A stretch of DNA of 64,000 bases from Candidatus Eiseniibacteriota bacterium (GTDB lineage Bacteria; Eisenbacteria; RBG-16-71-46; JAFGJU01). The position numbers were made by a program, and so were the translations under genes. The stretch lies in the NCBI GenBank assembly GCA_026388185.1, contig JAPLKG010000003.1, positions 22,871-86,870 of the forward strand, read 5' to 3'. The notes under the pieces are model-generated. The model did not search any database, had not been told where the DNA came from, and was given only the letters and a program-made list of their open reading frames with translations. How positions within the stretch are numbered: position 1 is the stretch's first letter; the number at the start of each line of letters is the position of its first letter. Positions 3,016 through 64,000 of this stretch are shown one piece after another.

Positions 3016-3086
3016 AAGCAGCCCCTTTGAACAATCAAGGTTATTCTCTGTCCGCGGATCTATTCGGACAACTACTCATCACAGGG

Positions 3087-3335: not shown

Positions 3336-3898
3336 TTCTGCCTCCTCTTGTACGATTTCATGTTATTGAACGCCAAGACTCCATCTCCGCGCCCTTCAAA
3401 CTCCAGGGAAAGGCAAAATAGTAAAGCCCCATCAGAACCGATGAGACCTAGTCCATTTTATGAAGACGCGCGAATCATCCAGGACCAACAAAGCGTTCGT
3501 GCCTCCACTTATGTTCTTCTCACCAAAACATCAGTTGCCTTCGATTTATGTAGCACAAATTGTATCACCAAAGTACCTACCGTGCAAGCAGAAACATCTG
3601 GTGGCGCAGCGGCCGCTCATTCCACGAATAGTCAAGACCCAGTAGACGCTCTTCTCACAGTTAGGGAAATCTGAACCCGAGGACTTATCGAAACCTGGGT
3701 CATGCGAGTTTGCCGGCTGCCCCCCACAAGTGACCCGGCCTTCCAGTCAACCGGCTTCTTTCTCACAACAGATTCGCGTCCACCCGCGGATACATTTCGT
3801 GTCTCGCGGATGGAAAGAAGGCCGCCACAGAATTGGGCGGACCCTTACAGAGGCCCTCCACCCTCAAGCTGTAGATAGAGGAGCACTCCGCGGCGTCC

Positions 3899-6307: not shown

Positions 6308-6370
6308 GACTTCCTCCTGAATAATTACGAGCCCTCTATCTACACCAGCGGGAGGCGTCTTGCGCACGCA

Positions 6371-29322: not shown

Positions 29323-29334
29323 GCGAGAGGCCGG

Positions 29335-40993: not shown

Positions 40994-41002
40994 CGGCCTG
41001 CC

Positions 41003-42343: not shown

Positions 42344-42382
42344 TTCAAACCTCCGTTACGAACCGAATGTAGGTTTTCACCA

Positions 42383-43762: not shown

Positions 43763-43814
43763 TTGGACACTTCCTTTCCGAGATTCACGCGGCTGGCCGC
43801 AAAACCGGCAATCC

Positions 43815-45269
43815 CTAGAACCAGCGCGATATGATGACCCGTTTGTCTGTGAAAAACTCTATGGAATCGCGTCCGTGCGCCTTGAGATCTCCGAAGAACG
43901 AACCCTTCGATCCGCCGAACGTAAAGAACGCCATCGGAGCGGCGATGCCGATGTTTATCCCGATCATGCTTATTCCAACGTTGTACGCGAATTTTCTCGC
44001 GTGACCGCCATTCTGCGTGAATATGGAGGTCGCGTTTCCAAACTCCGACCGAGAGATCATATCGAGGGCTTCCTGGAGCGATTTGGCCCGCATGAGGCAC
44101 ACAACCGGTCCAAAGATCTCTTCCTTCGCGATCGACATGGAGGGAGTGACTTTCTCAAACACGGTCGGCCCGACAAAGTAACCCTTGGGACAATCCGCGA
44201 CCTTGCATCCCCTGCCGTCAAGAAGAAGCTTTGCGCCTTCGCGCACCGCAGAGTCAATGTGGGCCACGATCTTGTCTCTGTGCTTCTTCGAGATGACGGG
44301 GCCCATCGTCGTCTTCTCGTCGAGTCCGTTCCCCACGACGATCTTTCGTGCCGCCCGGAGAAACTTCTCTTTGAAGGCTTCATACACGTCTCCGACAGCC
44401 ACTATGAGACTCCCGGCCAGGCAACGTTCTCCGGCGCATCCGAAACAGGAATCAATGAGTGTCGCGACGGTATTGTCAAGGTCGGCATCGGGCATCACGA
44501 CGAGAAAATTCTTTGCCCCACCGAGCGCCTGGACGCGCTTGCCGTGTAGAGAAGCGGTAGAATAGACGTAGCGAGCCACGGGGCTCGACCCCACGAAGGA
44601 GATGCCGCACACATCCGGATGTTCAAGAAGCGCATCGACCGCCTCCTTCGCTCCGTTCACGAGGTTCACCACTCCCGGCGGAAAGCCGACGTCGTGCATG
44701 AGCTCGAAGATGCGGTTCTGACAAAGCGGGGTCTGCTCCGACGGCTTCACGACGAACGTGTTGCCGCAGGCCATGGCGTAAGGAAAGAACCAGAGGGGCA
44801 CCATTGCGGGAAAATTGAAGGGCGTCACGCAAGCGAACACGCCGAGAGGCTGCCGCATGGCCACGCAGTCGATATCCTTGGCAATATCTTCCAGGCTGTA
44901 GCCCATCATGAGAGACGGAATCCCCGCGGCGACTTCGACGTTCTCGATTGCCCTGCGCACGCTGCCACGCGCTTCCGGCAGGGTTTTTCCGTTTTCTTTC
45001 ACAAGAAGCCGCGAGATGTCCTCGAAGTTCTCTTCGAATAGGTTCTTGAACTTGAAAAAGTAACGGGCACGAACCAGGGGCGGAGTCTCTCTCCACTGCG
45101 AAAACGCTTTCCGGGCAAGAGAGACGGCTTTGTTGACCTCTTCCCGCGTCGAGAGAGGAACGCGCGCAATAATCTCGTCCGTGGCCGGATTTCTTACGTC
45201 GAGCGCCTTCGTGGACTTTGAGCTGACCCACTTTCCTCCGACGTAGTTGCGAATGGTTTCGATTGGCAT
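43815..45269 (-). CDS. mmsA: Methylmalonate/malonate-semialdehyde dehydrogenase (CoA-acylating)
   Basis: It starts MPIETIRNYVGGKWV... It has the ALDH catalytic Cys (FGCAGERC) and Glu motifs. An AGAGG RBS precedes the Met. The ORF track's upstream extension probably does not belong to the gene. Confidence 0.85.
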   Translation of the reverse strand: MPIETIRNYVGGKWVSSKSTKALDVRNPATDEIIARVPLSTREEVNKAVSLARKAFSQWRETPPLVRARYFFKFKNLFEENFEDISRLLVKENGKTLPEARGSVRRAIENVEVAAGIPSLMMGYSLEDIAKDIDCVAMRQPLGVFACVTPFNFPAMVPLWFFPYAMACGNTFVVKPSEQTPLCQNRIFELMHDVGFPPGVVNLVNGAKEAVDALLEHPDVCGISFVGSSPVARYVYSTASLHGKRVQALGGAKNFLVVMPDADLDNTVATLIDSCFGCAGERCLAGSLIVAVGDVYEAFKEKFLRAARKIVVGNGLDEKTTMGPVISKKHRDKIVAHIDSAVREGAKLLLDGRGCKVADCPKGYFVGPTVFEKVTPSMSIAKEEIFGPVVCLMRAKSLQEALDMISRSEFGNATSIFTQNGGHARKFAYNVGISMIGINIGIAAPMAFFTFGGSKGSFFGDLKAHGRDSIEFFTDKRVIISRWF

Positions 45270-45972
45270 TTTTACCTCTTTCTTGGAATCTGCCCTTGCC
45301 GGTCCTAGATCGCTCTGACTGGCGCGGAATCCATCCTTGCCGGCGTACGGTTTGCAAGAAGCGGCCCCAGAAAGGGCCGACCTCATCTTTCATGCTAAGT
45401 TGGTCGTCCTCTGAAGTCAAGACCGAACATGTGGATAGCTGTCTGAAGCGCACGGCCACTAGCGAACCGGTGCAAAGTCAGTGCCGCCCAGGATCGAACT
45501 TATGGATGGCGTAGGTTATCGCAAGATTGTTATTGACTTACGAGGTCAAGGTGTCGTATAATCGCGGTCGCTTGCGGGTCACAAATGACTGGCCCTGTGC
45601 GCCTGGGGAGCACCCTGTAGAGATCGCGTAAGCGGCTGACGCATTCCGCAGCAGCCGTGTGTCGCCAACCTCCGTTACTGGCGCGTAGCTCTCTGCTCCC
45701 GCTGGTGTAGCTTCCTCGAATTCTCACGCGACTGTGTAATGCCCTGTCACAGGAGGAGGCTTCCGTCTTGCCTGCACACAGTTCCGGGATACCTGCGCAA
45801 TTTGGACAACAGATCGACAATCGACTTCAACGCGCTTTCCGTCTGGCATTCGTTTCTGCGAGGGAGGTGATCCGGCGTAGAGGAAAATGCTTCAGTTTTC
45901 GCCGCGTGTTGTATCACATCACTCTAACAGTGCGTACGAATCCGGGATTTCATGGATTCGGGAGGTCAAATC

Positions 45973-47169
45973 ATGAAGGGAAGAACCTTGGTGACGGGGA
46001 TTCTGGGGTTGGCCCTGCTGCTATTTTCTTTTCCGGCGTCGGCGCAGCCAATGGCCGACTATGGGGATGCGCCTGATCCGGCGTTCCCGTCGCTCTTCGC
46101 CAGCAGCGGCCCCCGGCACACGAATGTAGGGGATTGCTTTGTTGGGTGGACGTCAACAACGGAGCCAAACGCCCTGATTCCGGACCTGGACGCCGATGAC
46201 GGCGCCCCGCTGATATTCGCAAACTACACACCCTCGGGCTGGACGGCGTGGGTCTACGTGCCGATCACGATCGCCCAAGGCGCTCAGGCGAAGCCCCGTT
46301 ACTTGAACGTCCTTCTTGACGCGAATTCCAGCGGAAGCTGGTGCGACGTACCTGGAGAGTGGATTGTCCGCAATTTCCCACTTCCGACAACATACTACTA
46401 TGTCCACTTTCCCGGGCAAACGGTGTGGTACTGCATAGGCGGCTACACCGGCGTGGCTAACTACAGTGGCATGCACTGGCTGCGTGTCACGCTCAGTGAC
46501 GCGATGGTCACCCCCGATCTCCCGATGATGGGATGGAGTGGGCGCGTCTCGAGCAGTTTCCTAATCGGTGAGACCGAGGACTGGCTGCTTCAGTGGTACT
46601 ACAATCCTCCTAAACCACCGGACCCACCCAATCCTCCGCCCAACACGGGCATACCGCCACTCCCGGCACCGGTTCCTGAATGCAACAAGACGGGCGCCGT
46701 TTACCAGTCGCCCCCTCCGACGCACGTCGGGCACTCGGGGACTTTCGACATCGTCGTCGAGAACTCGAGCGTCAACCATCCGATGCACATAGTTGAGGGG
46801 CCGTTCGCGACTGACGTCAACGGGAGTCCGATTGATATCGGTCTGGAGAGTCTAGAAAGCACTTACCTGAACCCGGGACAAAAGGCCACCTCCCACGGGA
46901 GCTGGGATTTCGATAACCCGGGTTCTAACCAGGCATGGTGCAACTGGGACGTCGTGGTCGACCCACAGGGACAGTACATTGTCGTCGCTAACGTGGGCGA
47001 TTACGTTGACGCCACCGGCAATCAGCCGACCGGCGGCAGCTTCCAGGAATCAACACCCACCAAGGTTCCCCTGACGACTCGGACAGGGCTTGTCGTGCTT
47101 CTCGTTACGCTCGGCCTGGTTTCCGCTTATTTCATCGTGAGGAGGCGTGCCCTCGCGTCAGGAAAATAG
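45973..47169 (+). CDS. Secreted protein with a C-terminal transmembrane helix plus Arg cluster (exosortase/sortase-type sorting-signal-like)
   Basis: A GGGAGG RBS precedes the start, followed by a signal peptide (MKGRTLVTGILGLALLLFSFPASAQ). The C-terminus is ...TKVPLTTRTGLVVLLVTLGLVSAYFIVRRRALASGK. Confidence 0.55.
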   Translation: MKGRTLVTGILGLALLLFSFPASAQPMADYGDAPDPAFPSLFASSGPRHTNVGDCFVGWTSTTEPNALIPDLDADDGAPLIFANYTPSGWTAWVYVPITIAQGAQAKPRYLNVLLDANSSGSWCDVPGEWIVRNFPLPTTYYYVHFPGQTVWYCIGGYTGVANYSGMHWLRVTLSDAMVTPDLPMMGWSGRVSSSFLIGETEDWLLQWYYNPPKPPDPPNPPPNTGIPPLPAPVPECNKTGAVYQSPPPTHVGHSGTFDIVVENSSVNHPMHIVEGPFATDVNGSPIDIGLESLESTYLNPGQKATSHGSWDFDNPGSNQAWCNWDVVVDPQGQYIVVANVGDYVDATGNQPTGGSFQESTPTKVPLTTRTGLVVLLVTLGLVSAYFIVRRRALASGK

Positions 47170-52072: not shown

Positions 52073-52576
52073 TTATTCGAAGCTTCGGATCACTCTGAGT
52101 ATCTCGTGTGGGTCACTCGCGCTTCGCAGCTCCTGGACGGCATTCTCGAAACGCAGTAAATCGGCGAGAGACTTGTAAACCCTGAGATAGAACACGTCGT
52201 CGCTGGGAGGGGCCGCCATCGGAAAGAAAACGTTCACTGGCTTTCCGTCGAGCGCCTCGAATTCCAACCCCTTGTCCGAGCGCGCGAACGCGATTACGAA
52301 TTCTTTTACCTGGACGGTTCTTACGTGAGGGAGAGCCACGCCGCCTCCGATGCCCGTCGTGGCCTTCTTCTCACGGTTGTGCAAGTCGCGGAAGAGGCGA
52401 CGAGAATTTCGCACGTTCCCCGAGCGGTCGAGGAGGTCTGCCAGGGCGGTCACTATTCTCTCCTTCGTTTCCCTGACCACTCTTTGAGGGCTCATTTCCT
52501 CGGGAAAATCAAGAGTCACGAGAGAATCAAGGTTGAGCTCAACAAGCTCGGGAGTCAGATACCTCGAAAGTCGCAT
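52073..52576 (-). CDS. ptsN: PTS EIIA-Ntr (PtsN-like) regulatory protein
   Basis: GIGGGVALPHV carries the phosphorylatable His of EIIA(Fru/Ntr). The protein is about 167 aa. Confidence 0.75.
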   Translation of the reverse strand: MRLSRYLTPELVELNLDSLVTLDFPEEMSPQRVVRETKERIVTALADLLDRSGNVRNSRRLFRDLHNREKKATTGIGGGVALPHVRTVQVKEFVIAFARSDKGLEFEALDGKPVNVFFPMAAPPSDDVFYLRVYKSLADLLRFENAVQELRSASDPHEILRVIRSFE

Positions 52577-54130
52577 CAGATGTCTCCCAAGGCCGGCGGC
52601 TGCGTGTCGCTCAAGCTATGCCGCGTCAGACGGTGCGCTCGGGTCGCTCGGGTCGCGGCGGAGCCTCCAACGGAGGGCGCCATCACGAGGCACGCCGAGA
52701 CAATGGCGGCGTTCAAGTACCAGTTATATCGCATCATGTTGTGACCGAACAGACCGAGTAAAAGCAAGAGCCAATAGGCGGCCAAACAGGCACGGCAGAC
52801 GGCACTGATACCCTTCGCTTCGGGAGTGTCCACCGAGGACAACAACGACCCCGCCCGTGCGGCCCCCCTCATACAGACAATCACAAAGCCTGCAAACGCG
52901 ATCAGGCCGAGTATTCCGGTCTCACCGCCTACCTGTGCCAACAGATTGTGCGCCTCGAACCAATTGCGGTTCTGCGGGGGCGAATAGATCATGCCGTGCG
53001 CGATGCCGAAATCCCCAATTCCTACGCCCAGGAGCGGTCTGTCCATGAACATCTGAGATCCGACTCTTAACCCTTCGATTCGTCCCATCGCAGATTCGGC
53101 CGCGGAAGCGTTCTTTTGGAACTCAAAGATGGTCAAGAATCTCTCCTTGTACTGCATAGGCATGGCAACCCATGCCCCCACGGCGACCAGCATGACTATG
53201 ATGCCCGTCAGCATCCTTCTCTTGTGCGTGATCCACATGTAGAACAACAGGAACAGAACGCCCAACATCCCTGACCTGGAACCAGTGAGAACCACAACGA
53301 CGCTCCCGGCGCAGATGACGCCAAGCCAGCACAGCCGCCAGAAGAGGTTTCGATTCGCTCCGATGCAATACAACCCGAAACAGACGGCGAGAACCAAGCT
53401 GGCGGCAAGCGAGTTCGGGTCCCCCCTCGAAAGAGAGTCGGTGGTCGCCCTGACGATGCCCATTGCAGTGTAGTTATAGCCCACGGAGTAGTAGAGCCTC
53501 AAGCTCTCCGCTGCCATCCACACATGCCCCAGCGCAAAAACCGACAAGAAGACAAAGAGCCTCCTTGGAGTATTCACCATTTGCGAAGTGAGAAAGGCAA
53601 GAACCCCCAACTTGAGAAGCTCAATCCATGCAGTGGCGGCCCCCAACTTCCACACCGCCGTGAAAACGGAGAGAAAACACACGACCACGAAGACGAGAAG
53701 CCACGAAGCAATGCCGCGCGAAACCGGCCAGAACCTTCTCCCCGCGGCAACCTGAAATCCCCAACCAACCGCGGCCAACACCGCGCACAACCTCTCGACG
53801 TGCAACGGCTCGAGCTGCACTATACCTTCTTGCGGCCTCACGGCGACGAGAAGCATGAAGAGTAGCAAGGCTGGAAAGGGGTTGAAGAGAAACCACAGTG
53901 ATGCGTAGAGTGCCACCGCAATCAAGAAGACCAGCAGAGGATCAAAAAAGAGAAGCATAAGTCCTGCGGTCACCGGTATCACAAACACCGCGAATATCTT
54001 GAAAAGCGTGCCAGGGTTTATCGGCGGTCGCGGGCCCGCACCCCGCACCCGTCCCGACTCAACCCGGACAGGCTCTCTTCCGTCTTCCGTATCGTGCTCG
54101 TTCACTGGCCGGTGTCTCCCCCAAACATCA
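52576..54130 (-). CDS. O-antigen ligase / polymerase-like (Wzy_C family) polytopic membrane protein
   Basis: It has more than 10 transmembrane segments and a large periplasmic loop. The ORF track's start (54318) overlaps the upstream GT2 gene, so the real start is probably an internal GTG or TTG near 54130. Confidence 0.5.
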
Positions 54131-54140: not shown

Positions 54141-55178
54141 TTATCGCTCTGCAGGACTCCGGGCCGGACGCCCGAAGCCGATCATACCTCTCCAAAAACC
54201 GGCGAAAAGCCCCGCGTGAGTGATTAGCAGCGCCACGAAGATCGAGGGCATCAGCCGTAACCCGTGTCTCAAGGAGAGGACAAGAGAAGCCGATGCTATC
54301 AAGAGAACGTACGCGCACGCCAGGAAAAACAAGGCTTGTCCGGCTGCCATGAAAAACAGTGCGAGCACGGCGAGGGCAACAACAATGACGAGTGGCGTTC
54401 CAAGCAGAATCGGGCCCGAGGTCGCATCTCTGGGATGCTTCAGGAACAGCCTGGCGCGACCCGCACCGTAACGCGCCATCTGTCTAAACAGAGGGCCAAG
54501 ATCGTCTCTGGCATGGTAGCGGACCATCACGCGCGGGCTGGTGAAGGCCCTCAGCCCCGCCTTCCTTGCTCTTAGATTGAAGTCAACGTCCTCGCACGCA
54601 TCCAGTCTTTCGTCATAGTACCCTATTCGCTCAAACACGCGACGCGTGTAGGCTGCGCCGGAGCTGTCTGGATCGACGAGGTCCTCCTTCGCAGTAGAGA
54701 AAATCAGCGAAGAAGGATTGTGGCCGAGCCACGAGGTCCTCGCGATGACTATGGCCCTCTGGACGTCGCCCGATCCAGTCCACTCCAACGGCTGAGGTCT
54801 GCATATCACGTCTGCCGACGTCGTTCGAAAAAGGTCCGCCAGATTCCTGAGCAGAAACTCATCCGGAATCTCACAGTGACCATCTACAAACAAGACTGCG
54901 TCCCCCCTGGCCGCTCTGGCTCCAACGTTTCTCCCAGAGCTCGACAGACGCCGGGGGTTCTCGAGCACGCGGATGTTCCGATGAATCTTGCTCAGGCCTG
55001 CGGCGACGGACACGGTTTCGTCGGTAGAACCCCCGTCCACCACGAGAAGCTCAAATCTGTCTGGCGGAAACTTCTGCCTGCACAGTGCTTCCAGAACGCC
55101 GCCTATGTGCCTGCCTTCGTTCAGCACGGGAAGGACAACGCTGATGAAGATGGGCTCGGATGTGCCGTTGCTCTCCAT
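54141..55178 (-). CDS. Family 2 glycosyltransferase
   Basis: FISVVLPVLNEGRHIGGVLEAL...LLVVDGGSTDET is GT2 (GT-A). The DxD motif is in ACEDVDFNLR. Confidence 0.85.
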   Translation of the reverse strand: MESNGTSEPIFISVVLPVLNEGRHIGGVLEALCRQKFPPDRFELLVVDGGSTDETVSVAAGLSKIHRNIRVLENPRRLSSSGRNVGARAARGDAVLFVDGHCEIPDEFLLRNLADLFRTTSADVICRPQPLEWTGSGDVQRAIVIARTSWLGHNPSSLIFSTAKEDLVDPDSSGAAYTRRVFERIGYYDERLDACEDVDFNLRARKAGLRAFTSPRVMVRYHARDDLGPLFRQMARYGAGRARLFLKHPRDATSGPILLGTPLVIVVALAVLALFFMAAGQALFFLACAYVLLIASASLVLSLRHGLRLMPSIFVALLITHAGLFAGFWRGMIGFGRPARSPAER

Positions 55179-55184: not shown

Positions 55185-56360
55185 TCACGCCCTCTCTACT
55201 GCGAGAGTCTTCGTGTAAACCTCCGTCAGGAGTCGGAGCTGTCCTTCGAAGGAATGTGATCTACGAATCGCTTCCTGCCCGGCTTGCCCCATGGCCCTGG
55301 CAAGTCCGGGATCAGACAACAATTCAGTGATCGCCCTCGCCAATTGGCCGCTCTCTCCGGGCGAGACAAGAATCCCGGTCTCTCCGTTAACGACAATTTC
55401 GGGGACGCCGCCAACCGCGGTCGCTATCACCGGCGTTGCCGCAGCAAGAGCCTCGAGGAGCACGTTCGGAAGCCCTTCCGTCAGAGAAGGAAGAACGAAC
55501 AAGTCAACGTTCCTGAGAGATGAAGCAAGGCCCGGGACATGGCCAAGGAAATGAATCGAATCGGCGCACCCAATCTTTTCCGCAAGTCTCGCGAGATGGT
55601 CTCGCAGGGGACCGTCACCGAAAACCAAGAGTACTGCCTCCTTCTCGCTGGCGAGCACGCGCGGCATGGCCTCAATGAGGTACTCTTGCCCCTTTTCGGG
55701 CGAGAGCCTCCCCGCGGTTGCGATTATCGTTTTCCCGCAGAACTTGCTGAACAGCGCCGAGAGTCCGTCGTCCGATCCCGCGTCCGCCGGCACATCGCAC
55801 TGCGCGGCCTCGCCTTCGTTTCGACGGTGCTCTGCGCGGTCATCCTGTTTCTCTCGTTCTACAGACACGGCATTGGGGACGAGCGAGACTTTGTTTTCCG
55901 GCAGACCTCGTGACGCCAGAACGTTCTGTTGCTCTCTCGAAACGACGACAACGTGATCCATCCGTCTCAGAAGCCAATTCTCGAGTTTGTAGTAGAGAGC
56001 AACCTTCAGATTCTCCCTCGTCGTCCCTCTCCAGAACGCAATCTGCCGCGCGGGAAGCCCCGCTCGTCCGACAAGACAGAGAAAAGTGGATCGATAGTCG
56101 TGCGTGCAAATCAGTTCGGGTCTCTGAGTCTTGAAGAGCTTTCTCAAACGAAGAACCTGCGTCGGATCGTAGGCGCTAATACACGGAACAGAGAAGGACC
56201 GTATCCCTAGAGCGTTAGCCCTCCGGGCAAGCTCTGTCTCCTTGCCGTTTTCGTAGAAGCTGCACAGTAGGGCCTCAATCTGAGTTCCCCGGAGCAGCTT
56301 CAGGTGCTCGACTATCTGCTTCTCGGGCCCCCCGAAAAAGTTGCTCGCGCGCACGTGCAT
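55185..56360 (-). CDS. Family 4 (GT-B) glycosyltransferase
   Basis: The C-terminal region has LFVLPSLTEGLPNVLLEALAAATPVIATAVGGVPEIV with the E-x7-E motif. Confidence 0.8.
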   Translation of the reverse strand: MHVRASNFFGGPEKQIVEHLKLLRGTQIEALLCSFYENGKETELARRANALGIRSFSVPCISAYDPTQVLRLRKLFKTQRPELICTHDYRSTFLCLVGRAGLPARQIAFWRGTTRENLKVALYYKLENWLLRRMDHVVVVSREQQNVLASRGLPENKVSLVPNAVSVEREKQDDRAEHRRNEGEAAQCDVPADAGSDDGLSALFSKFCGKTIIATAGRLSPEKGQEYLIEAMPRVLASEKEAVLLVFGDGPLRDHLARLAEKIGCADSIHFLGHVPGLASSLRNVDLFVLPSLTEGLPNVLLEALAAATPVIATAVGGVPEIVVNGETGILVSPGESGQLARAITELLSDPGLARAMGQAGQEAIRRSHSFEGQLRLLTEVYTKTLAVERA

Positions 56361-56473
56361 TACTTTGACCTTGAGCGAGCCGATCATCCTGGACGAGCCG
56401 ATTCCGTCGGCAGAACCAACCATGTTCCTCTACTTTCAAACGTCTCCGGTCCACGAGGACCATGATCCTGACG

Positions 56474-58675
56474 CTAGCTACCTTTCGGTATTGAACCACT
56501 CCTGGGTTGCATCAGTCTCCAGTAAAGACACCACAACTGTCTGAGCGCGTCCCTGAACAGGAATTTCTGATCCGCCTCCATTCTCGCGTGCGACCCCAGC
56601 CACGTACGCAGGTGAGAGTCCCTGAGAAGCCTCAGTATTCCCCTCCCGAGCATGGCGGGATCGTCCGACTGAACCAGCAAGCCGCTTTCACAGTCGGCCA
56701 CTATCTCAGCATTTCCACCCACGTCAGTTGCGACGATGGCGGAACCGGCAGAGCAATACTCCAGCAGGGCGTTGGCGCAGCCCTCGCTTCTCGAAGAAAT
56801 CACCGCCACGTCAAAGCCTGGAATCAGTGTATGTGCGTCCCGCCTGAAACCGAAGAACGTCACTGCCCCAGCGATGCCCAGTGACGAGGCAAGATTCTCC
56901 AGCTCTTCGCGAAGCTCTCCCTCCCCGAATATGCAGAAGCGTGACAGGGGCTCTTCCTTGAAGACGACCGACGCCGCTGCGATAAACACGTCCACGCCTT
57001 TCACGTATCTGAGATTGGCTACCATCCCCACGCAGAGTTCTCCCGGCTTGAGTTCAAGCCCCAGCTTGGCCTCGTGTGCCGGCAGTGCCACGCCCTGAGG
57101 CGCAACCATACCGTTGTGAATCACCAGAGCTTTGTGCCGGGGGATCTTCTCGTCTGCCCGCACGGATTCTTCTACGGCGTGCGAGTTGGAGAGAACGCAC
57201 GTGGCGAGCGTATCGAGCATTCTGACGAACACTACCTGCGGCCACGTGAACGCGAGACTTCTGATGCCTCTCCTGCTGGTTATTATCACCGGTACTCGCG
57301 CCAGACGCGCCGCCAGAGTGCCCAGCACGACGGAGTCAAAGAACGACAGGTGGACAACGTTTATTCTTTGCTTCCTCATCAGTCTGGTCAGACGCCACAG
57401 ACCCGAGACAAAGCCGGGGTCGAGTAGCTTGGCGACTCCAAGTATCGTTACCGGGCATTTGAAATCGGACGTAACGACGCCCCGAAGGGTGCACAGGAAG
57501 GGATTCACTAGATCCCTGTCGGCGTTGCTGATGGTGCTTTCGAGTTGAGTCTCCGTTCCACCCGCATATTGTGGATGCAGAGAGTCAATTACGTAAAGCA
57601 CGTTGATTCGCCCGTCGTGCGCGGCCAGAGATTTCAGTGTCCTTTCGCGTTTCGCACATAGGACTGACTCGACGGCGGAGAGACACGAAAACACAGGCAG
57701 CGGTAGTTCCTCGTATCCGCCGGGTGCCTCGATGCGCGGGAGAAGGAACGCGCCACTGGACAGCCTCACGACGCCACGCACGGTTGACAAGACCGCACGA
57801 TACCCGGCTTCCCGAGCGAGAGAAACGTCGAGCGGCCGGAAATCCGCTCTTGTTCCACTCGGAAATGCGAAACAGTCCACCTTCTTCCCGGCAATTTCCT
57901 CGAGAATGTGCTTGGACGTGAGGAGCTCACTCCTGGCCTCTTCTTTGGAGAGCAAGGAGAAGACTTCATGAGAGTGACTGTGAGAACAGATCTCCATCCC
58001 CGATTCAAGCAGTTGGAGTACGTCTTCCCGGGAGAGATAGAGTCGCGAGCAGGGGAGTTCCCTTTCCTTGACGTCGTTCACTCTGAGCAATTCCCTCACC
58101 GCAGCCTGCCTCCTGCGGGCAGGAAGATATCGGAGATACGCTTTGAGTCTTATTACTGCGGCCCTCTTGAGCGGGAAAGTGCCGGTTTCGAGTGACTCAA
58201 CGTAGTCAAGATACTTGGGAAGACGCACATTCTCCAAGCAGGCCACGAGCTCCTCCACCAAATCGGTCCATATAACGAAGGAAGGCTCAAGTGTTTTTGT
58301 GACTATGGAAACCGCCGCGCTGACGCCGTGATTTCGCAGAACGGGAACCGCATGAGTGAGAAAACTCCTTCTACCGTCGTCGAAGGTGATCGCAAGTGCC
58401 GGGGGCGTGAGTTCCCTCTTGCCCTCTATTGCGTCAAGTACGTGGCTCAGAGGAACCACGTTAAAATGTTTGGTGACGTAGCGGATACTCTCTTCGAGCG
58501 CCTCAGGCGAGATGCCGTAGGACAGTTCATCGCCCCTGGCCCAGACGTCGTGAAAAGTGACGATCGACGCTTGCGGGCCGGAGATCAAAGGGCCGACACG
58601 CGACGTTACGAATGGAAAGACGCCCGACTTCTCGCCCAGTCGGCAAAAACCACGCACCATGCGACGACTTTTCAC
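56474..58675 (-). CDS. Fusion of a polysaccharide deacetylase (NodB-like) to a GT4 glycosyltransferase
   Basis: The N-terminus has ALAITFDDGRRSFLTHAVPVL plus HSHSH. The C-terminus has VAVISSRSEGCANALLEYCSAGSAIVATDVGGNAEIV. Confidence 0.7.
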   Translation of the reverse strand: MKSRRMVRGFCRLGEKSGVFPFVTSRVGPLISGPQASIVTFHDVWARGDELSYGISPEALEESIRYVTKHFNVVPLSHVLDAIEGKRELTPPALAITFDDGRRSFLTHAVPVLRNHGVSAAVSIVTKTLEPSFVIWTDLVEELVACLENVRLPKYLDYVESLETGTFPLKRAAVIRLKAYLRYLPARRRQAAVRELLRVNDVKERELPCSRLYLSREDVLQLLESGMEICSHSHSHEVFSLLSKEEARSELLTSKHILEEIAGKKVDCFAFPSGTRADFRPLDVSLAREAGYRAVLSTVRGVVRLSSGAFLLPRIEAPGGYEELPLPVFSCLSAVESVLCAKRERTLKSLAAHDGRINVLYVIDSLHPQYAGGTETQLESTISNADRDLVNPFLCTLRGVVTSDFKCPVTILGVAKLLDPGFVSGLWRLTRLMRKQRINVVHLSFFDSVVLGTLAARLARVPVIITSRRGIRSLAFTWPQVVFVRMLDTLATCVLSNSHAVEESVRADEKIPRHKALVIHNGMVAPQGVALPAHEAKLGLELKPGELCVGMVANLRYVKGVDVFIAAASVVFKEEPLSRFCIFGEGELREELENLASSLGIAGAVTFFGFRRDAHTLIPGFDVAVISSRSEGCANALLEYCSAGSAIVATDVGGNAEIVADCESGLLVQSDDPAMLGRGILRLLRDSHLRTWLGSHARMEADQKFLFRDALRQLWCLYWRLMQPRSGSIPKGS

Positions 58676-58685: not shown

Positions 58686-59498
58686 TCACCGTCCTTTCGA
58701 CTGGCTCATCCACATCTTTTCGGGTGGGAAGCTGAAGAAACTCAAACCAAGAAGAGCAAACCAAGAGATGACTCGCACCGGCTTGAAACTACATTTCTGA
58801 TAGGCCTTTATTGACGCCAGGTTCTTGACGCGAATGTGACAATAAATCTCCGTGTATCCCTTCTCCTTCATGAGCCCGGAAACTCTATCGATCAGAAAGG
58901 GAGCAACGTTCTTTCCTCTCAGCCTCGGGTCCACGTAGGTATCATAGATGAAGGCCACGCCGGGCGGGAGGTCGAACTCTTTCTTGAAGTCCAGAACGTA
59001 GACTCGCTCGAACCCGATCTTCATGTATCCCACGATCTCGCCTTCCATTCTAACGTGGGGCAAGAGATGCCTTAGCTTCTCGGCAAGCTCTAGCTCCCTG
59101 GGGTCAACGGTTCCCGGCATGTGTTGTCTCAAGAGCCAGGCCGTCGTCTCCTCCGGCCGGGAAAAATCTATCTCGACCGGAGCCGAGGTCGTGTTTGCAG
59201 GAAAAGTTACCGACAAGTCCCTCACCATCCAGATCGCTCTCTGGTAGTTCCAGATTCTCCGACGGATTTCTCGCAGGAGCGCCCGTGCACCTTCGTTTCT
59301 GCGGGTCTCCAGAGCCCTCTCGACTAGCGAACTGACCCAAACCACCTTCGCGGATTCCTCATGAAACGGTAGGTTCTCTCCAGCAAGAGCTGCCGGAAGG
59401 TCCGGTTTCTTTGCACTCCCAGAATGCAGTGCCTGCAAAAACCCGACCAAATCTTGCCAAGATTTCGTATGAAACTGAGATGCTTCTCGTTCCGCCAT
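58686..59498 (-). CDS. GNAT-family N-acetyltransferase
   Basis: The C-terminal acetyl-CoA-binding region is VDPRLRGKNVAPFLIDRVSGLMKEKGYTEIYCHIRVKN. The N-terminal portion overlaps the upstream radical-SAM gene, so the true start is probably internal. Confidence 0.55.
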   Translation of the reverse strand: MAEREASQFHTKSWQDLVGFLQALHSGSAKKPDLPAALAGENLPFHEESAKVVWVSSLVERALETRRNEGARALLREIRRRIWNYQRAIWMVRDLSVTFPANTTSAPVEIDFSRPEETTAWLLRQHMPGTVDPRELELAEKLRHLLPHVRMEGEIVGYMKIGFERVYVLDFKKEFDLPPGVAFIYDTYVDPRLRGKNVAPFLIDRVSGLMKEKGYTEIYCHIRVKNLASIKAYQKCSFKPVRVISWFALLGLSFFSFPPEKMWMSQSKGR

Positions 59499-60472
59499 AT
59501 CCGTGCCAGGTCTTCGTTCCGGATGTTTCCCAAATGATAGTCACCGAAAAACGGACAAGGCAGCACATTGCCGTAGGGGTCAACGGTGACCTTGAAGCGG
59601 GCGACGTAGCATTTCTTGTTGCCGAATCGGCCCGTGACCAGGTTTCGGGCCTTGAGACAATCCACGTTCTCGGTCATCAGAGCGATCCTCATGCCGCGCG
59701 CTTCCTTTTTCAGTTCACGCACTTTCCGCTTCAGCGTCCGGGCTTGTGCTTGATCGACTAAGATGGAGTCTCCCTGGAAAATGTAATATGGATTGGGTCT
59801 GATACCATTTATGCTTGCGTGATCGACCATCTCCGGAAGGAATTCGCCTGCGTATTCCAAATGCATCAAATCCAGGCCCACAGCCTCTGCAAAGGATAGG
59901 ACCTTCTCGAACGCGTCGACGTTGAACTTGGAGATGGTGGTGTTGCAGTGTAATAACGGGCGCTTCTTCTCACCTCGGGCTCTCTTGACCGCTTCTATGC
60001 AGTTTAGCACCTTGTCGTAGGAACCGTCTTTACCTCTTACGAGGTCTTGACTCTCCCCAACTCCGTCGACGGACAGCCACAGGTCATCCAGACCGGCTTG
60101 AACCAAGCCCTCCGCCGTGGCCCGATCCATAAGATTACAATTCGTGACCAAATCGGCTTCTATGGGGTATTTCTTGATATGAGAAATCAAAGGAATCACG
60201 ACTTCCTTTCGCAGAAGCGCATCTCCCCCAAAAAGCTCGATGTACTTTACTCCCAGGCCATAACACATATCTACGGTTCGTTGCCACTCTGCCAGGCTAA
60301 GCTCCTCCCCGGTTTGCCTCCTCTGCCACATACTGCAAGTCTTACAGCCGGAGGTGCAGCGATACGTGATGAAGAAGAGCGCGTCTCGCGGTTTGACGAG
60401 ATGGTAGTCTATCTCTCGCCGAGAAAGATATCCCAGTTGCCGAGCGACTTTTCCGAAAAAAGTTGAGATCAC
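59324..60472 (-). CDS. Radical SAM enzyme with a C-terminal SPASM/twitch-like Cys cluster
   Basis: CTSGCKTC (CxxxCxxC) follows FFITYR. The C-terminus has CYVARFKVTVDPYGNVLPCPFF and CRHC. Confidence 0.8.
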   Translation of the reverse strand: MISTFFGKVARQLGYLSRREIDYHLVKPRDALFFITYRCTSGCKTCSMWQRRQTGEELSLAEWQRTVDMCYGLGVKYIELFGGDALLRKEVVIPLISHIKKYPIEADLVTNCNLMDRATAEGLVQAGLDDLWLSVDGVGESQDLVRGKDGSYDKVLNCIEAVKRARGEKKRPLLHCNTTISKFNVDAFEKVLSFAEAVGLDLMHLEYAGEFLPEMVDHASINGIRPNPYYIFQGDSILVDQAQARTLKRKVRELKKEARGMRIALMTENVDCLKARNLVTGRFGNKKCYVARFKVTVDPYGNVLPCPFFGDYHLGNIRNEDLARIWRNEKHLSFIRNLGKIWSGFCRHCILGVQRNRTFRQLLLERTYRFMRNPRRWFGSVR

Positions 60473-60544
60473 TCTGATTCCTCCGGCTGCCGGCCTTCAC
60501 CGAGCCTCCGACAGAACCCCCGACGCTGCAAAGCGTGAGTCAGG

Positions 60545-61666
60545 TCAAGTGTTGGACAAAACCATCTTCTTGAGCCGCACGAGAATCCCGAACCTCCTGA
60601 GATAGTCTCTCAGTCTGAAGTCGAGCCAGAAAGGCATTCGCGCGTAAGCTCTGTTCTTCAGGATGTAGTACCTCACGTGTCTGTGGACCGATTCAGTCCA
60701 GCACATCTTGTAAGGATCGTCGTAACCCAGGAGGTCGTACGTCTTCAACCCTCGGTCGAACAGACTCTCTACGATGAATTGGTCCAACACGCCCCCCGGC
60801 GAACCCTGCTTGAAGCGTTCATCATATTCCGCCTTGAGACCGAACTCCGTTTGACCACTACGCAGGTGGTATTCATACGCTATGGGAATGGAATTCAATA
60901 TCAATAGCCACAACACCAGGAATCGCTCCTGATTCGCCCATCTAGCTAAGTTAACGTAAAAATTCAGACTTTCCTTAGTGGAAAAAGCGGAGCTGCCTCT
61001 GCCGCCCTGCCAGCTTTTTCGGGTGACGTTCTGAATTTGCGCCAGCAGGCCGTCAAGATCGTCTATCTGTGAGTGCTCCTCTATTCTAAAGTCCCCCGAT
61101 TCTCCCAGTCGCCGCTGTCGATTTCTCATGTTCTTTCTGAATTTCCTGGAGCGTGTGGCCAGAAAGCTGTTCCAATCGGATTGAATGGAAATGTAGGGGG
61201 ACAGGCGGATCATTCTCTTGCCCCAGAGAAGCCGGGCGTCTCCGCACTTCTTCTCGATCAGATCGATGACCGGCGAACTCTCCAATATGTCTTCCAGCTT
61301 GAGCAGATCCCAGTTGTTTCTTCTCCACAGATGGTCGAGAATCTTCTCCGCGCCGGCCGTATTGTCCGGCGGAAAGATGAAGTCGATCTTGGGCGACTGG
61401 TGGTTGGCCATGAATTCGATGATCCTCATGGGGAATCCCATGTAGGACCCTCTCGAGATCATCAGCGGAGCTATGGCCAGGACCTTCTGCTCCTGCCTGG
61501 CAACCAGAACATAGAGTTTTTTCTTCGTGCCGAAGCTGTCCCACCAGATCCTGAACCACTGATGCATGTAGAACGGCTTTTCGTCCGAGTGGCCGCGCAA
61601 GAGTCCGTTCCATTCGGATTCCAGTCGTAGAAAACTCTCGTAATCGGTGATTTCGACTATCTGCAT
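60545..61666 (-). CDS. FemAB/CelD-like acyl(amino-acyl)transferase (GNAT-fold, Acetyltransf_6 / BioF2-like family)
   Basis: The N-terminal pattern YESFLRLESEWNGLL...PFYMHQWFRIWWDSFG is characteristic of CelD/FemAB-related proteins in polysaccharide loci. Confidence 0.65.
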   Translation of the reverse strand: MQIVEITDYESFLRLESEWNGLLRGHSDEKPFYMHQWFRIWWDSFGTKKKLYVLVARQEQKVLAIAPLMISRGSYMGFPMRIIEFMANHQSPKIDFIFPPDNTAGAEKILDHLWRRNNWDLLKLEDILESSPVIDLIEKKCGDARLLWGKRMIRLSPYISIQSDWNSFLATRSRKFRKNMRNRQRRLGESGDFRIEEHSQIDDLDGLLAQIQNVTRKSWQGGRGSSAFSTKESLNFYVNLARWANQERFLVLWLLILNSIPIAYEYHLRSGQTEFGLKAEYDERFKQGSPGGVLDQFIVESLFDRGLKTYDLLGYDDPYKMCWTESVHRHVRYYILKNRAYARMPFWLDFRLRDYLRRFGILVRLKKMVLSNT

Positions 61667-62800
61667 CTAATGGTCTAGAAGTTGACGAAAACACTCTCGA
61701 TGACGGTCTATCATCTGCGTCAGAGAGAACTTCTCCCGGACGATTCTTTGATTTGTCTTCCCCATCGCGTTTCTGAGTCCGGCGTCATTCAGAAGCAACG
61801 TGATCTTCTCGGCCAACGCCGCGGAATCGTCAGGCGGAACCAGGAAACCACCCTCTCCCTCTACCACGAGCTCCGGCGTGCCCCCGACCGACGCAGCTAC
61901 GACGGGCAACCCGCTGGCCATATACTCCAGGATGGTGTTGGACAGTCCCTCAGATCGAGAAGACAAGACGCCCAAATCCAACACGTCAAGATAGGGAGTC
62001 ACATCCTCAACAACTCCCGTCCACGTTACCTTCCGTCCTATTCCCAAGTCATCGGAGAGCCGTCTCAGTCGCCGAGTTTCTGCCGCTTCCCCGTCGCCCA
62101 CTATCAGGAACCTGGCTTGAGGAACGTCCCCGGCCACTTGGGCGGCCGCGCACAAGAAGCCCTCGATATTCTTGATCGGCCGCAAATTCGACACTAGCCC
62201 CACGGTCAGTTCCCCGTCTCGAACACCCAGTTCTTGTTTGAGCTCGTTGGGCGACTTGTCGGTAACTCTTCCGAATTTCTGATATTCTATTCCGTTGTAG
62301 ATGACGCCCACCTTGTCTCGAGGAACGCCCAGCTTCAGAATCAAGCTCTCCCTGACCGCCTGGCAGTTGACCAGGTAGCGATCCACCCTGGTACTCACTA
62401 CTTTCAACGCAAGGATTCGACTGCGATTCAGATCGTGTCCCAGGTTGCGTTGGGTGGAGACGATTTTCCTCGCCCTACCCCATCTGGCGGCCATCACGCC
62501 CGCCAGATTCGAATCGGGAAAATAGGTTTGCACTATGTCGAACTTCTCGTTCCGTATGAAGGCTACCAGTCGTCGGATCTTCAGCCAGGCGCCGGGATTC
62601 CTGAAGGAAGTAATTCCTACGACGAACTTGGGACAGTCGAAGTAACCGGTCTCGATCCAAGAGCTGTGCCTAAGCACCGCCAGATGCACTTCAAATTCAT
62701 TCCGATCCAGACCGTTGACGAGTTTCGAAAGCTGCCCTTCCGTTCCACCGCCAATGTGACCGACGTGATCGATGACGAACAGTATCTTAGTTCTTCTCAT
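61667..62800 (-). CDS. Family 4 glycosyltransferase
   Basis: The N-terminus is MRRTKILFVIDHVGHIGGGTEGQ. The C-terminus has LSSRSEGLSNTILEYMASGLPVVAASVGGTPELV. The ORF track's N-terminal extension is probably spurious. Confidence 0.8.
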   Translation of the reverse strand: MRRTKILFVIDHVGHIGGGTEGQLSKLVNGLDRNEFEVHLAVLRHSSWIETGYFDCPKFVVGITSFRNPGAWLKIRRLVAFIRNEKFDIVQTYFPDSNLAGVMAARWGRARKIVSTQRNLGHDLNRSRILALKVVSTRVDRYLVNCQAVRESLILKLGVPRDKVGVIYNGIEYQKFGRVTDKSPNELKQELGVRDGELTVGLVSNLRPIKNIEGFLCAAAQVAGDVPQARFLIVGDGEAAETRRLRRLSDDLGIGRKVTWTGVVEDVTPYLDVLDLGVLSSRSEGLSNTILEYMASGLPVVAASVGGTPELVVEGEGGFLVPPDDSAALAEKITLLLNDAGLRNAMGKTNQRIVREKFSLTQMIDRHRECFRQLLDH

Positions 62801-63923
62801 GAGAGACTTCCGATTTGTGTGGAAGGAACAGTCTTTTGATTCGCTCCTTGACCGGCCACCACACGAGCAAGGGCAGACCGGCCAGGCCGCGCTGGAAGCC
62901 GCAGAAAAGCACAGTTCGACGGAACTCCTTCGTCCAATGCCACTTGTACTCGTGTTCTCCGCGCAGGAAATCAAACTCTCGGACGGACTTTGCTATCAGG
63001 TCTTCCACAACGTAGCCAAGCATGGCCGCGCCCACTCGATTCTTCTCGAATTGAGGGTCATAGCCGGTCTGATAGTCATAGTACTTCGAACCATAAAGGT
63101 AGCCGTAACGGAATGCAACCGGACGCTGATCGACCTCGAGGAAAGCCAAGTAGAGCCAACCGTTGCCGGCAATGACCTGAGACAGTTTGAGATGAAAGGC
63201 CAGGTAGTTCTTTCTACAAAAGTTACCCGTCTCACCCTTTTTCTGCCGTGACAGACGGTGCAGGCGAGCCGCCTGTTCAAAGGCGTGGGGCAGAGAAGCG
63301 GGGTCTTCTGCGAGAACGAGCTTGACTGCGGAGGAACTCTCCAGTTTCTTGCGCGTCCTCTTGACGGCGCTTCTCTTCTTGTAGGAATACGAATTCAAGA
63401 GCTCGTCCAAGCTTGAGGGCAGTCTCAAGTAAGGACACACATTGAAATTTCTCTGCCACACGAACACGTTCCCGCCGGAAAGGAGCTTCTTGAGCAAAGG
63501 CAAGACCGGGGAGTTTGCGTCTACATCTGAGAGATATAGAACGTCCCAGCTTTCCTTGTTTCTCATCAAGGCCTCGACTATTTCCGTCACTATCTCTTCA
63601 TAATCCTGCTCGGCCACAATGAAATCCAAATATTCCGGCGAAACCGGTGAACCGTACCCGATGAACTCAAGTAGTCTTACCGGAAAAAGACCGAGCGTCT
63701 TTCGTGAGCTTATCTTCAAGGGGGCAAGACCGACCAGTTTCCCGCCGGCATCCCTGACCGCGACTACAAAAAGAACGGAGTTCGTCCCAAAAAATTCCCA
63801 CCAGGTCGAAACCCATTCCCAGGTCAGAAAGATGTTTGCGTTGCTCCGGGACAGGAGCTGATTCCACTCTGCCCTGTAAGCTCCAAGCTCGTCAAAATTG
63901 GAAATGATGTCGGCGTGGAACAT
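62787..63923 (-). CDS. FemAB/CelD-like acyl(amino-acyl)transferase, second copy
   Basis: FDELGAYRAEWNQLLSRSNANIFLTWEWVSTWWEFFG is parallel to the 60545-61666 protein. Confidence 0.65.
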   Translation of the reverse strand: MFHADIISNFDELGAYRAEWNQLLSRSNANIFLTWEWVSTWWEFFGTNSVLFVVAVRDAGGKLVGLAPLKISSRKTLGLFPVRLLEFIGYGSPVSPEYLDFIVAEQDYEEIVTEIVEALMRNKESWDVLYLSDVDANSPVLPLLKKLLSGGNVFVWQRNFNVCPYLRLPSSLDELLNSYSYKKRSAVKRTRKKLESSSAVKLVLAEDPASLPHAFEQAARLHRLSRQKKGETGNFCRKNYLAFHLKLSQVIAGNGWLYLAFLEVDQRPVAFRYGYLYGSKYYDYQTGYDPQFEKNRVGAAMLGYVVEDLIAKSVREFDFLRGEHEYKWHWTKEFRRTVLFCGFQRGLAGLPLLVWWPVKERIKRLFLPHKSEVSHEKN

Positions 63924-64000
63924 GCGATTGCCTCAAGAATCCCTTACGCGTCGATCCATGGTCTGACTTTCCGGGGGGTACTATAACAGAGGAAGCCAAA

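Follow-up and report, generated by a model that had tools for sequence, protein, structure and literature searches.

A recurrent cassette of FemX-like transferase, Twitch-type radical SAM enzyme and GNAT acetyltransferase, and its probable role in decorating surface sugars

What does a radical S-adenosylmethionine (SAM) enzyme do in an exopolysaccharide (EPS) operon? The question is raised by a 64,000-nt stretch of contig JAPLKG010000003.1 from Candidatus Eiseniibacteriota (hereafter, the window), in which a radical SAM gene, referred to here as rSAM, lies between a gene for a FemX-like transferase of Pfam family PF13480 and a gene for a GNAT acetyltransferase. Tailoring of polysaccharides is usually credited to acetyl-, pyruvyl-, succinyl- or methyltransferases, and radical SAM chemistry on sugars is, to our knowledge, described mainly in antibiotic pathways and not in surface polymers. 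We find that the three enzymes constitute a cassette whose probable task is to decorate surface sugars chemically, since the same module recurs beside sugar-polymer genes in many phyla, and its members are sometimes fused to each other.

A conserved and repeatedly fused three-enzyme cassette

An earlier reading made without database searches (the sequence-only reading) had described a co-directional, tightly packed EPS locus combining a radical SAM enzyme with a GNAT, a GT4 glycosyltransferase and two FemAB/CelD-like transferases, and all five ORFs are indeed present on the minus strand at 58686-63923. Pfam domain E-values confirm this gene content beyond chance, and the likely gene starts could be fixed because an identical public contig (L001) carries gene calls; with these calls mapped onto the window, neighboring genes among the five share up to 22 nt or leave at most 72 nt between them, which bears out the proposed packing. 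The first gene of the operon within the window codes for Fem2 (62787..63923), a tandem-GNAT FemX-like transferase matching PF13480 (Acetyltransf_6) with an E-value of 4.6e-27. It is followed by a 377-aa GT4 (61667..62800; Glycos_transf_1, 1.2e-32; Glyco_transf_4, 1e-18), the ORF of which reaches 62974 and for which the L001 start was adopted, and by Fem1 (60545..61666), the other tandem-GNAT FemX-like paralog (PF13480, E = 7.1e-27), which is located directly upstream of rSAM and is the PF13480 member of the cassette. The rSAM gene itself (59324..60472) codes for 382 aa with matches to Radical_SAM (PF04055; 1.6e-14) and SPASM (2.7e-11, 44 bits), and its stop is overlapped by 22 nt by the start of the gene for a 219-aa acetyltransferase of the GNAT “partner” family (58686..59345; PF00583, E = 2.3e-13), which begins with GTG within an ORF reaching 59498.

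To see how far this arrangement extends, we compared 62 loci obtained by scanning a single genome for each GTDB species, in which neighbors were found by phmmer with the window proteins and by agnostic all-against-all clustering; addition of the close relative L003, which is syntenic with the window locus and has an rSAM 74% identical to ours, brings the census to 63. The 62 loci span about 12 phyla (FCB, Zixibacteria, Omnitrophota, Verrucomicrobiota, Planctomycetes, Armatimonadetes, Nitrospirota, Desulfobacterota, Gammaproteobacteria, Thermoplasmata), the two Thermoplasmata being the archaeal carriers, and include the cultured strains Citrifermentans bremense R1 (Desulfobacterota, L047) and Lentisalinibacter sediminis C23 (Gammaproteobacteria, L045). 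A PF13480 gene lies within 2.5 kb of rSAM and on the same strand in 50 of the 62 loci, usually at position -1, and in about 15 loci a second paralog of the Fem2 type occupies position -2, in tandem with the Fem1 type upstream of rSAM. The GNAT partner is usually found at +1. According to family HMMs (hidden Markov models), it is present in 36 of the 63 loci, 34 of which have GNAT only and two of which combine it with a formyltransferase (Formyl_trans_N, closest to the ArnA and Fmt types); another 12 have the formyltransferase only, and 15 have neither. A 223-aa ORF in Lentisalinibacter (L045:7005-7673) proved to be a diverged GNAT partner (hhalign probability 96.9). Other neighbors of the cassette include genes for GT4, GT2, Wza, BY-kinase/Wzc, Wzz, phosphoglycosyltransferase (PGT) and exosortase, and only two of the 62 loci (L005 and L039) have no glycan context at all.

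Moreover, each pair that can be formed from PF13480, rSAM and GNAT occurs somewhere as a single polypeptide. PF13480-rSAM fusions are encoded on an Armatimonadetes chromosome (L025) and found in proteins P0160, P0165, P0168 and P0172, rSAM-GNAT fusions were seen in P0108, P0109 and P0114, and a PF13480-GNAT fusion in L057. The entire cassette is contained in the 1183-aa metagenomic protein P0176 (PF13480-GNAT-Radical_SAM/SPASM-GNAT), a natural candidate for structural work. In addition, GNAT is fused to the Wzx flippase in two Omnitrophota loci (L014 and L017), and rSAM to a GT4 in a single ORF of a Geomonas metagenome-assembled genome (MAG; L048). An rSAM-GT4 overlap in L041 was also considered as a fusion and discarded, as it involves two reading frames. 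Overall, the fusions are strong evidence that PF13480, rSAM and GNAT act together, at a membrane-associated assembly line, and the GNAT-Wzx combination places the step at the flippase.

The rSAM-GNAT fusions, P0176 included, also mirror the domain pair of Elp3, the mechanism of which is established, and thereby raise the alternative that GNAT hands acetyl-CoA to rSAM for a methyl-radical reaction forming a C-C bond, i.e. a carboxymethylation of the glycan or its side chain. Overlap of the two genes in the window would agree with such a partnership, but in 12 loci the place of GNAT is taken by a formyltransferase, which fits N-capping with small acyl groups and not acetyl-radical chemistry. The domain order, furthermore, differs among the fusions, and rSAM is of the SPASM/Twitch type, its only Pfam matches being Radical_SAM, SPASM and Fer4_12, with none to the Radical_SAM_C domain of the Elp3 type. 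An Elp3-like reaction thus appears highly unlikely.

The radical SAM enzyme belongs to an unnamed family of predicted Twitch type

A Candidatus Eisenbacteria MAG encodes a protein that matches rSAM at 100% identity, and rSAM has 302 homologs at 40-75% identity in a collection of 5.8 billion proteins and 1085 representatives (E<=1e-30) in a 50%-identity library. No NCBIfam model (release 20) comes near its cutoff, the best being NirJ1 with 87 bits against 650. Exactly seven cysteines are universal in the 57 full-length family members: C39, C43 and C46, which make up the CxxxCxxC motif of the radical SAM superfamily (C39-x3-C43-x2-C46) in 57 out of 57, and C288, C306, C346 and C349 in the C-terminal domain. 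A full SPASM domain has a seven-Cys motif (Cx9-15Gx4C...Cx2Cx5Cx3C...C) and two auxiliary [4Fe-4S] clusters, and in the corresponding rSAM pattern, C288-x12-G301-x4-C306 followed by C346-x2-C349, the Cx5Cx3C part is missing. The SPASM label given in the sequence-only reading therefore stands insofar as the Pfam SPASM model matches, but full SPASM status was ruled out, as only four C-terminal cysteines are conserved; for the same reason, the domain is better viewed as Twitch-like, with one auxiliary cluster. Indeed, positions 278-356 of the rSAM family profile align with residues 158-242 of BtrN, its Twitch domain (E = 1.7e-13 for the chain), and in this alignment C288, C306, C346 and C349 fall on the BtrN auxiliary-cluster ligands C169, C188, C232 and C235. 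Judged by its cysteine pattern, rSAM is a distinct, unnamed family of Twitch type, probably carrying one fully Cys-ligated auxiliary cluster. Such fully ligated clusters act in characterized relatives as an electron sink for two-electron oxidation, exemplified by dehydrogenation in BtrN and anSME and by sactipeptide or C-C cross-links, and by analogy the rSAM cluster may play the same role.

The AlphaFold2 model of rSAM (predicted local distance difference test, pLDDT, 94) shows a single N-terminal helix leading into the core. Its Foldseek neighbors are only generic SPASM/Twitch ones, at 12-19% identity, and comprise SkfB, SuiB, CteB, BlsE, PqqE, anSME, viperin, MoaA and DesII; solved radical SAM structures match it across most of its length, with query-normalized TM-scores of at most 0.62. 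The presence of the sugar-modifying BlsE and DesII on this list, and the fact that the C-terminal domain is best aligned with the BtrN Twitch with all four ligands conserved, bring to mind a reaction at a sugar carbon, such as those of the dehydrogenase BtrN, the epimerases HygY and NeoN and the decarboxylase BlsE. The product would then be a keto, epimerized or decarboxylated sugar, with PF13480 and GNAT decorating the same or a neighboring sugar. BtrN, HygY, NeoN and BlsE share with rSAM the CxxxCxxC motif, a single auxiliary cluster and the lack of an RRE, that is, of a peptide-recognition domain, and the rSAM-GT4 fusion in L048 is also consistent with a sugar substrate. They reside, however, in aminoglycoside or nucleoside antibiotic clusters, whereas rSAM is found in polysaccharide operons and, unlike them, is paired with PF13480 and GNAT; it is about 110 residues longer than BtrN and, with a core stretch scoring 8.9 bits and a context of EPS genes, does not qualify as its ortholog. 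The closest and commonest links of rSAM, fusions included, are to PF13480 and GNAT and not to glycosyltransferases, and its core matches the peptide modifiers SkfB, CteB and SuiB at least equally well. Finally, no conserved cysteine beyond the cluster ligands that could return a hydrogen atom was seen in the 57 members, which counts against epimerization, although not against dehydrogenation. Overall, we regard action on a sugar carbon as rather unlikely, and favor action on a decoration that the cassette itself installs, on the added residue or on the sugar bearing it.

Most characterized SPASM/Twitch enzymes mature peptides or cofactors, and the nearest NCBIfam and PDB matches of rSAM (NirJ, PqqE, SkfB, CteB, SuiB) are in line with this, so that one could picture a maturation system for a cofactor or for something akin to a ribosomally synthesized and post-translationally modified peptide (RiPP), which merely happens to sit beside glycan genes, with GNAT and PF13480 as unrelated neighbors. 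A peptide-glycan hybrid built on a small precursor had been entertained in the sequence-only reading as well. Yet the rSAM model contains no RRE domain, the loci have no conserved small ORF, the flanking genes abutting or overlapping, and every family match is far below cutoff, while covalent fusions connect rSAM to PF13480, GNAT and GT4 and, via GNAT, to Wzx, and a glycan context is missing only in L005 and L039. The RiPP hypothesis was accordingly rejected as scarcely credible, and the precursor-peptide idea was abandoned along with it. A role of rSAM as a housekeeping cofactor maturase was rejected on similar grounds: no NCBIfam maturase cutoff is reached, the neighbors are glycan genes, with PF13480 adjacent in 50 of the 62 loci, and the fusions occur in several lineages, so that, as originally surmised, the enzyme truly is part of a glycan locus, and the outcome named in the sequence-only reading as a refutation, a housekeeping enzyme conserved outside EPS loci, does not apply.

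Duplications of rSAM were observed in several lineages. In two Phycisphaerales loci (L033:3244-6190 and L042:9901-12625) tandem duplicates are found between PF13480 and GNAT, and in L004, L013, L019 and L032 a second, more distant rSAM paralog is located nearby.

FemX-like transferases and their donor

Fem1 and Fem2, which are 24% identical to each other, match PF13480 but not the Pfam FemAB family (PF02388), and do not belong to FemABX by sequence. No NCBIfam model, TIGR03019 included, matches either protein or the PF13480 proteins of exosortase-linked loci, and PDB sequence and profile searches with the PF13480 proteins yielded no significant match. The fold is another matter: the AlphaFold2 model of Fem1 (pLDDT 91.7) is a tandem GNAT, as in FemABX, and its top Foldseek matches in the PDB are FemX of Weissella and Staphylococcus (7z6a, 1ne9, 6snr), FemA, the C-domains of MprF/aminoacyl-phosphatidylglycerol synthases, and Sba18/Sbb17, with query-normalized TM-scores of 0.48-0.57. 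Thus, the FemAB/CelD-like label of the sequence-only reading holds for PF13480 membership and for fold, but not for the FemAB and TIGR03019 models. All of the best structural matches are aminoacyl-tRNA-dependent, and tandem GNATs that use acyl-CoA rank lower.

A review of these enzymes describes a catalytic Lys preceded by an aromatic residue, as in F304-K305 of FemX, and gives Orf11 as a precedent for aminoacylating an amino-sugar amine using Gly-tRNA (PMC12945691). Sba18/Sbb17 act on the amino-sugar scaffold streptothrisamine. The PF13480 alignment has Y319 in 56, K320 in 46 and W323 in 56 of 62 sequences, and both Fem1 and Fem2 carry the resulting Y-K-x-x-W motif (EYKWHW in the latter). The Y319-K320 pair of Fem1 is suggestive of F304-K305 of FemX, as a resemblance in sequence and not a superposition. 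Judging from the ranking of structural neighbors and the Y-K pair, both of them suggestive, we give about an even chance to aminoacyl-tRNA being the PF13480 donor.

The donor might instead be acyl-CoA or some other non-tRNA compound, with the cassette installing and modifying an unusual N-acyl group. PF13480 is annotated solely as a GNAT-clan acetyltransferase, K320 is not universal, a CapK-like adenylate-forming enzyme and a further GNAT are encoded in the L001 extension, and the Caulobacter protein HfsK, discussed below, is viewed as a putative N-acyltransferase whose donor is unknown (PMC5362036). Such a donor is at odds, however, with the ranking of structural neighbors, in which the aminoacyl-tRNA-dependent enzymes come before the CoA-dependent ones, and with the separate N-capping enzyme, GNAT or formyltransferase, the need for which is explained most simply by a new free alpha-amine. 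We therefore consider a non-tRNA donor unlikely.

The operon and its surroundings

The five genes at 58686-63923 open a heteropolysaccharide operon of nine or ten genes, apparently of the Wzx/Wzy type. Downstream of GNAT, and also on the minus strand, are genes for a 733-aa fusion of a CE4 polysaccharide deacetylase to a GT4 (56474..58675; Pfam Polysacc_deac_1 and GT4 domains), the translation of which retains the TFDDG and HSHSH motifs of CE4, another GT4 recognized by Pfam (55185..56423), a GT2 with C-terminal transmembrane segments (54141..55178; Glycos_transf_2 plus transmembrane-like windows), and a Wzy_C-type polymerase/O-antigen-ligase-like membrane protein with multiple transmembrane segments (52576..54105, with the L001 start; Wzy_C, E = 4.9e-22). 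The last gene, for a PtsN-like EIIA of the phosphotransferase system (PTS; 52073..52576; PTS_EIIA_2, E = 1.2e-29; NCBIfam nitro_reg_IIA below cutoff), is possibly co-transcribed with the operon, its membership of the system being uncertain; its start and the Wzy stop share 1 nt, which suggests that nitrogen-PTS regulation may couple to the polysaccharide operon. Fem2, the GT4 next to it, Fem1, rSAM, GNAT and CE4-GT4 are all devoid of transmembrane or signal-like segments, placing the chemistry of the cassette in the cytoplasm, where a SAM- and reductant-dependent enzyme has to be located. There are no tRNA genes in the window, and consensus scans of 51-64 kb for promoters and terminators gave no more than the chance expectation.

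L001 covers a further 10 kb beyond position 64000 (L001 1-9788). In this part, immediately upstream of the operon and co-directional with it, the contig encodes an M6 (immune inhibitor A-like) peptidase with weak Por_Secre_tail/FlgD_ig matches, i.e. a C-terminus of the type IX secretion system type, and the upstream position of this peptidase is conserved in the Eisenbacteria-type loci L003, L024, L027 and L028. Farther on, a divergent operon comprises a second CE4 deacetylase, a GNAT, the CapK-like adenylate-forming enzyme, an fn3 protein and Wzx (Polysacc_synt). Of the parts of a Wzx/Wzy pathway, Wzy_C, GT4 and GT2 are encoded in the window and Wzx just outside of it, in the divergent operon. 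As to deacetylation, a CE4 gene occurs on the same strand within 10 kb in 17 of the 29 long loci, in 10 of them as the long CE4-GT4 form.

Proposed tailoring of a lipid-linked repeat unit

We propose a scheme, to which we assign a somewhat better than even chance, in which the cytoplasmic cassette tailors a lipid-linked repeat unit. Gene content, conservation of the cassette, fusions, folds and the pattern of cluster ligands are observed; what we infer is the acceptor, the donor, the sequence in which the steps follow and the chemistry of rSAM. The cassette would most likely be a physical complex at the cytoplasmic face of the membrane, and its substrate would likely be the repeat unit prior to flipping. 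In the first step, a GT4 would put an N-acetylhexosamine on the lipid-linked unit, from which the cytoplasmic CE4 domain of the CE4-GT4 fusion would strip the N-acetyl group. By the action of Fem1 and Fem2, the freed amine would then receive an aminoacyl residue taken from aminoacyl-tRNA, with an acyl group as the less likely alternative, much as FemX aminoacylates peptidoglycan precursors and Orf11 the amino sugar of streptothrisamine; possibly two residues are added, since there are two PF13480 enzymes here. The new alpha-amine would be acetyl-capped by GNAT, or formyl-capped by the formyltransferase in other lineages. Next, rSAM would take a hydrogen atom from the added residue or from its sugar and deliver an electron to the auxiliary cluster, the outcome being a two-electron oxidation, either a dehydrogenation or a C-X cross-link. 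Finally, Wzx would flip the unit and Wzy would polymerize it. The combination of an amino acid or acyl decoration with radical chemistry, already suggested in the sequence-only reading, would fit both the FemX/MprF-like fold and the exchange of GNAT for a formyltransferase.

A number of points weigh against this scheme. Among the PF13480 sequences, K320 is replaced in 16 of 62, mostly by Leu; the TM-score of Fem1 to FemX is only about 0.55-0.57, and sequence profiles reveal no significant PDB relative; the choice between aminoacyl-tRNA and acyl-CoA cannot be read from sequence. The 15 of 63 loci with neither GNAT nor formyltransferase are mostly truncated contigs or a Geobacter-type variant, in which DUF362 and an unknown ORF stand in place of these enzymes, and strict exclusivity of GNAT and formyltransferase had to be given up, as L004 and L045 carry both. 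CE4 is not universal (17 of 29 long loci), and therefore the acceptor amine need not stem from de-N-acetylation. Neither the window nor the 10-kb extension yielded an initiating phosphoglycosyltransferase. The reaction of rSAM is constrained no further than by one fully ligated auxiliary cluster, all support for the cassette members comes from computation, and the majority of the carriers are uncultured.

DUF362 turns up in 17 loci (e.g. L047:8892-9980 and L039:11130-12281), at +1, +2 or -1, and is commonest as a neighbor where the formyltransferase replaces GNAT. A 231-aa ORF between PF13480 and DUF362 in Citrifermentans (L047:8182-8877) was examined as a diverged GNAT partner and rejected (hhalign probability 0.05).

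More tentatively, the product could be a novel side chain, in which one or two tRNA-derived amino acids are attached to a de-N-acetylated hexosamine, capped by N-acetyl or N-formyl groups and matured by rSAM; we consider this specific structure possible, although less probable than the scheme as a whole. It may amount to a tRNA-dependent, radical-SAM-matured mini-peptide on a sugar polymer, distributed over at least a dozen phyla, including archaea. If the donor is indeed aminoacyl-tRNA, non-ribosomal tRNA-dependent aminoacylation would extend from the cell wall, lipids and antibiotics to exopolysaccharides. By analogy with mycothiol, the added residue may be cysteine, giving a polymer-borne, mycothiol-like AcCys-GlcN in which rSAM might form a thioether cross-link, as do its structural neighbors SkfB and CteB. 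The only hint of this variant is a cysteine synthase encoded upstream in five loci of the Zixibacteria/Ignavibacteria type.

In these five loci (L007, L008, L010, L011 and L062), genes for an Rrf2-type regulator and the CysK-like cysteine synthase are found just upstream of the PF13480 pair. The synthase could point to the amino acid used, or could be a case of coincidental synteny.

Specific models for rSAM, the partner GNAT and these PF13480 proteins are absent from both Pfam and NCBIfam (release 20), and in public records all three carry only generic names. While polysaccharide tailoring as such is known, we could not find a description of this enzyme trio with its radical step in the full-text literature, the coverage of which leaves out most subscription journals, so that absence from it is no proof. 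Marked by adjacency and repeated fusions, the module is widespread, for the most part in lineages that are uncultured and largely anaerobic, and offers a testable entry point to a new glycan modification, as well as possible functions for the PF13480 “CelD/BcsL-like” proteins, for the unnamed Twitch radical SAM family and for DUF362. Experiments are made feasible by the cultured carriers C. bremense R1 and L. sediminis C23.

Comparison with characterized systems

The Caulobacter holdfast, an adhesive polysaccharide of the Wzx/Wzy type, supplies in HfsK the only studied precedent that we found for a FemX-like protein in a polysaccharide pathway. Its CE4 enzyme HfsH frees hexosamine amines, and HfsK, a FemX-like double-GNAT putative N-acyltransferase, is thought to re-acylate the amines freed by HfsH; HfsK associates peripherally with the membrane by way of a basic extension at its C-terminus (PMC5362036). 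The window locus likewise combines CE4 with a FemX-like transferase in a predicted Wzy-dependent pathway, and Fem1, which is likened to HfsK by description and not by direct sequence comparison, has a long basic helix at its end as well (residues 340-372). Its CE4, however, is fused to GT4 and predicted to be cytoplasmic, unlike HfsH, and the locus adds rSAM and GNAT, whereas the holdfast account mentions neither a radical SAM enzyme nor a dedicated capping GNAT or formyltransferase (PMC5362036).

With FemX, FemA, FemB, MprF and the Orf11/Sba18 enzymes, Fem1 shares the tandem GNAT fold and the aromatic-Lys pair, which in Fem1 is near the C-terminus. It differs from FemX-type enzymes in belonging to PF13480 and not PF02388, with no significant sequence similarity, and its proposed acceptor would be a lipid-linked glycan, as opposed to the Lipid II or UDP-MurNAc-peptide, phosphatidylglycerol and antibiotic scaffold acceptors of the FemX, MprF and Orf11 types.

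The proposed sequence of steps is also reminiscent of mycothiol synthesis, in which the GT4 enzyme MshA adds GlcNAc, MshB deacetylates it, MshC ligates Cys, and the GNAT enzyme MshD N-acetylates the product. Mycothiol and bacillithiol thus have in common with our scheme a GT4, a deacetylation, an amino acid on the GlcN amine and GNAT capping. The best NCBIfam matches of the window GT4 (61667..62800) are stp2, BshA and MshA, all below cutoff, and far below in the case of BshA (121.6 bits against 273.7) and MshA (84.2 against 462.5). The deacetylase of the window is CE4 and not of the LmbE/MshB type, the proposed ligase is FemX-like and not like cysteinyl-tRNA synthetase, and the proposed product, unlike mycothiol, would be the repeat unit of a polymer, with an added radical SAM step.

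Exosortases and sorting signals

In the XrtA EPS system of Haft, a FemAB-like protein (TIGR03019) is accompanied by a deacetylase (TIGR03006), and the sequence-only reading had accordingly linked the window locus to PEP-CTERM/exosortase systems. The two do share a CE4 deacetylase and a FemAB-like protein within an EPS locus. However, searches of the window and the 10-kb extension with HMMs from related-locus neighbors, including an exosortase HMM built from eight exosortases of related loci, revealed no homologs of exosortase, Wza, Wzc or Wzz, and the contig extension beyond 64 kb, suggested as the place to look, has no exosortase among the genes listed for its 10 kb. Since TIGR03019 does not match either, the link could not be upheld for this locus, and PF13480 proteins lack this match even in exosortase loci. 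The curated families associated with XrtA are not known to include a radical SAM enzyme, and no protein scanned against NCBIfam matched such a family. In other lineages the association is real: eight related loci have an exosortase or exosortase/EpsI fusion gene 1-6 genes upstream of the cassette, and the exosortase of L036 is XrtW (584 bits against a cutoff of 425).

A sorting-signal protein noted at 45973 had been cited in favor of the same link. The gene concerned (45952-47169, plus strand) codes for a secreted protein of 405 aa, which contains a proline-rich linker and has no Pfam or NCBIfam match. Its tail, KVPLTTRTG-[TM]-RRRALASGK (TM, transmembrane segment), has a sorting-signal-like tripartite layout with neither a PEP nor an LPxTG motif. 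The gene lies more than 5 kb away from the operon, on the opposite strand and behind unrelated genes. The gene that follows codes for a BNR_4/PDIAV-like lipoprotein.

Other genes in the window

A separate CE4 polysaccharide deacetylase gene (28570-29322) is directly followed by a gene for a PMT/ArnT-like GT-C membrane glycosyltransferase (29335-31179), both on the plus strand (28570-31179). On the minus strand, a row of genes at 137-7690 resembles a bacterial module for ubiquitin-like conjugation or of a defense type; its products are a ThiF/E1-like protein (137-1279), a deubiquitinase-like protein of the Prok-JAB kind (1251-2516), an AAA ATPase of 822 aa (3899-6367) and a TPR protein (6371-7690). 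An apparent cluster for reductive pyrimidine or amine catabolism (38330-45386, minus strand) consists of genes for PreA-like DHO_dh/4Fe-4S and PreT-like Fer4_20/Pyr_redox_2 proteins, a dihydropyrimidinase-like amidohydrolase, a class III aminotransferase and an aldehyde dehydrogenase. Finally, the plus-strand gene at 36925-38232 codes for a Memo-like protein (PF01875), the Memo family being part of the AmmeMemoRadiSam trio.

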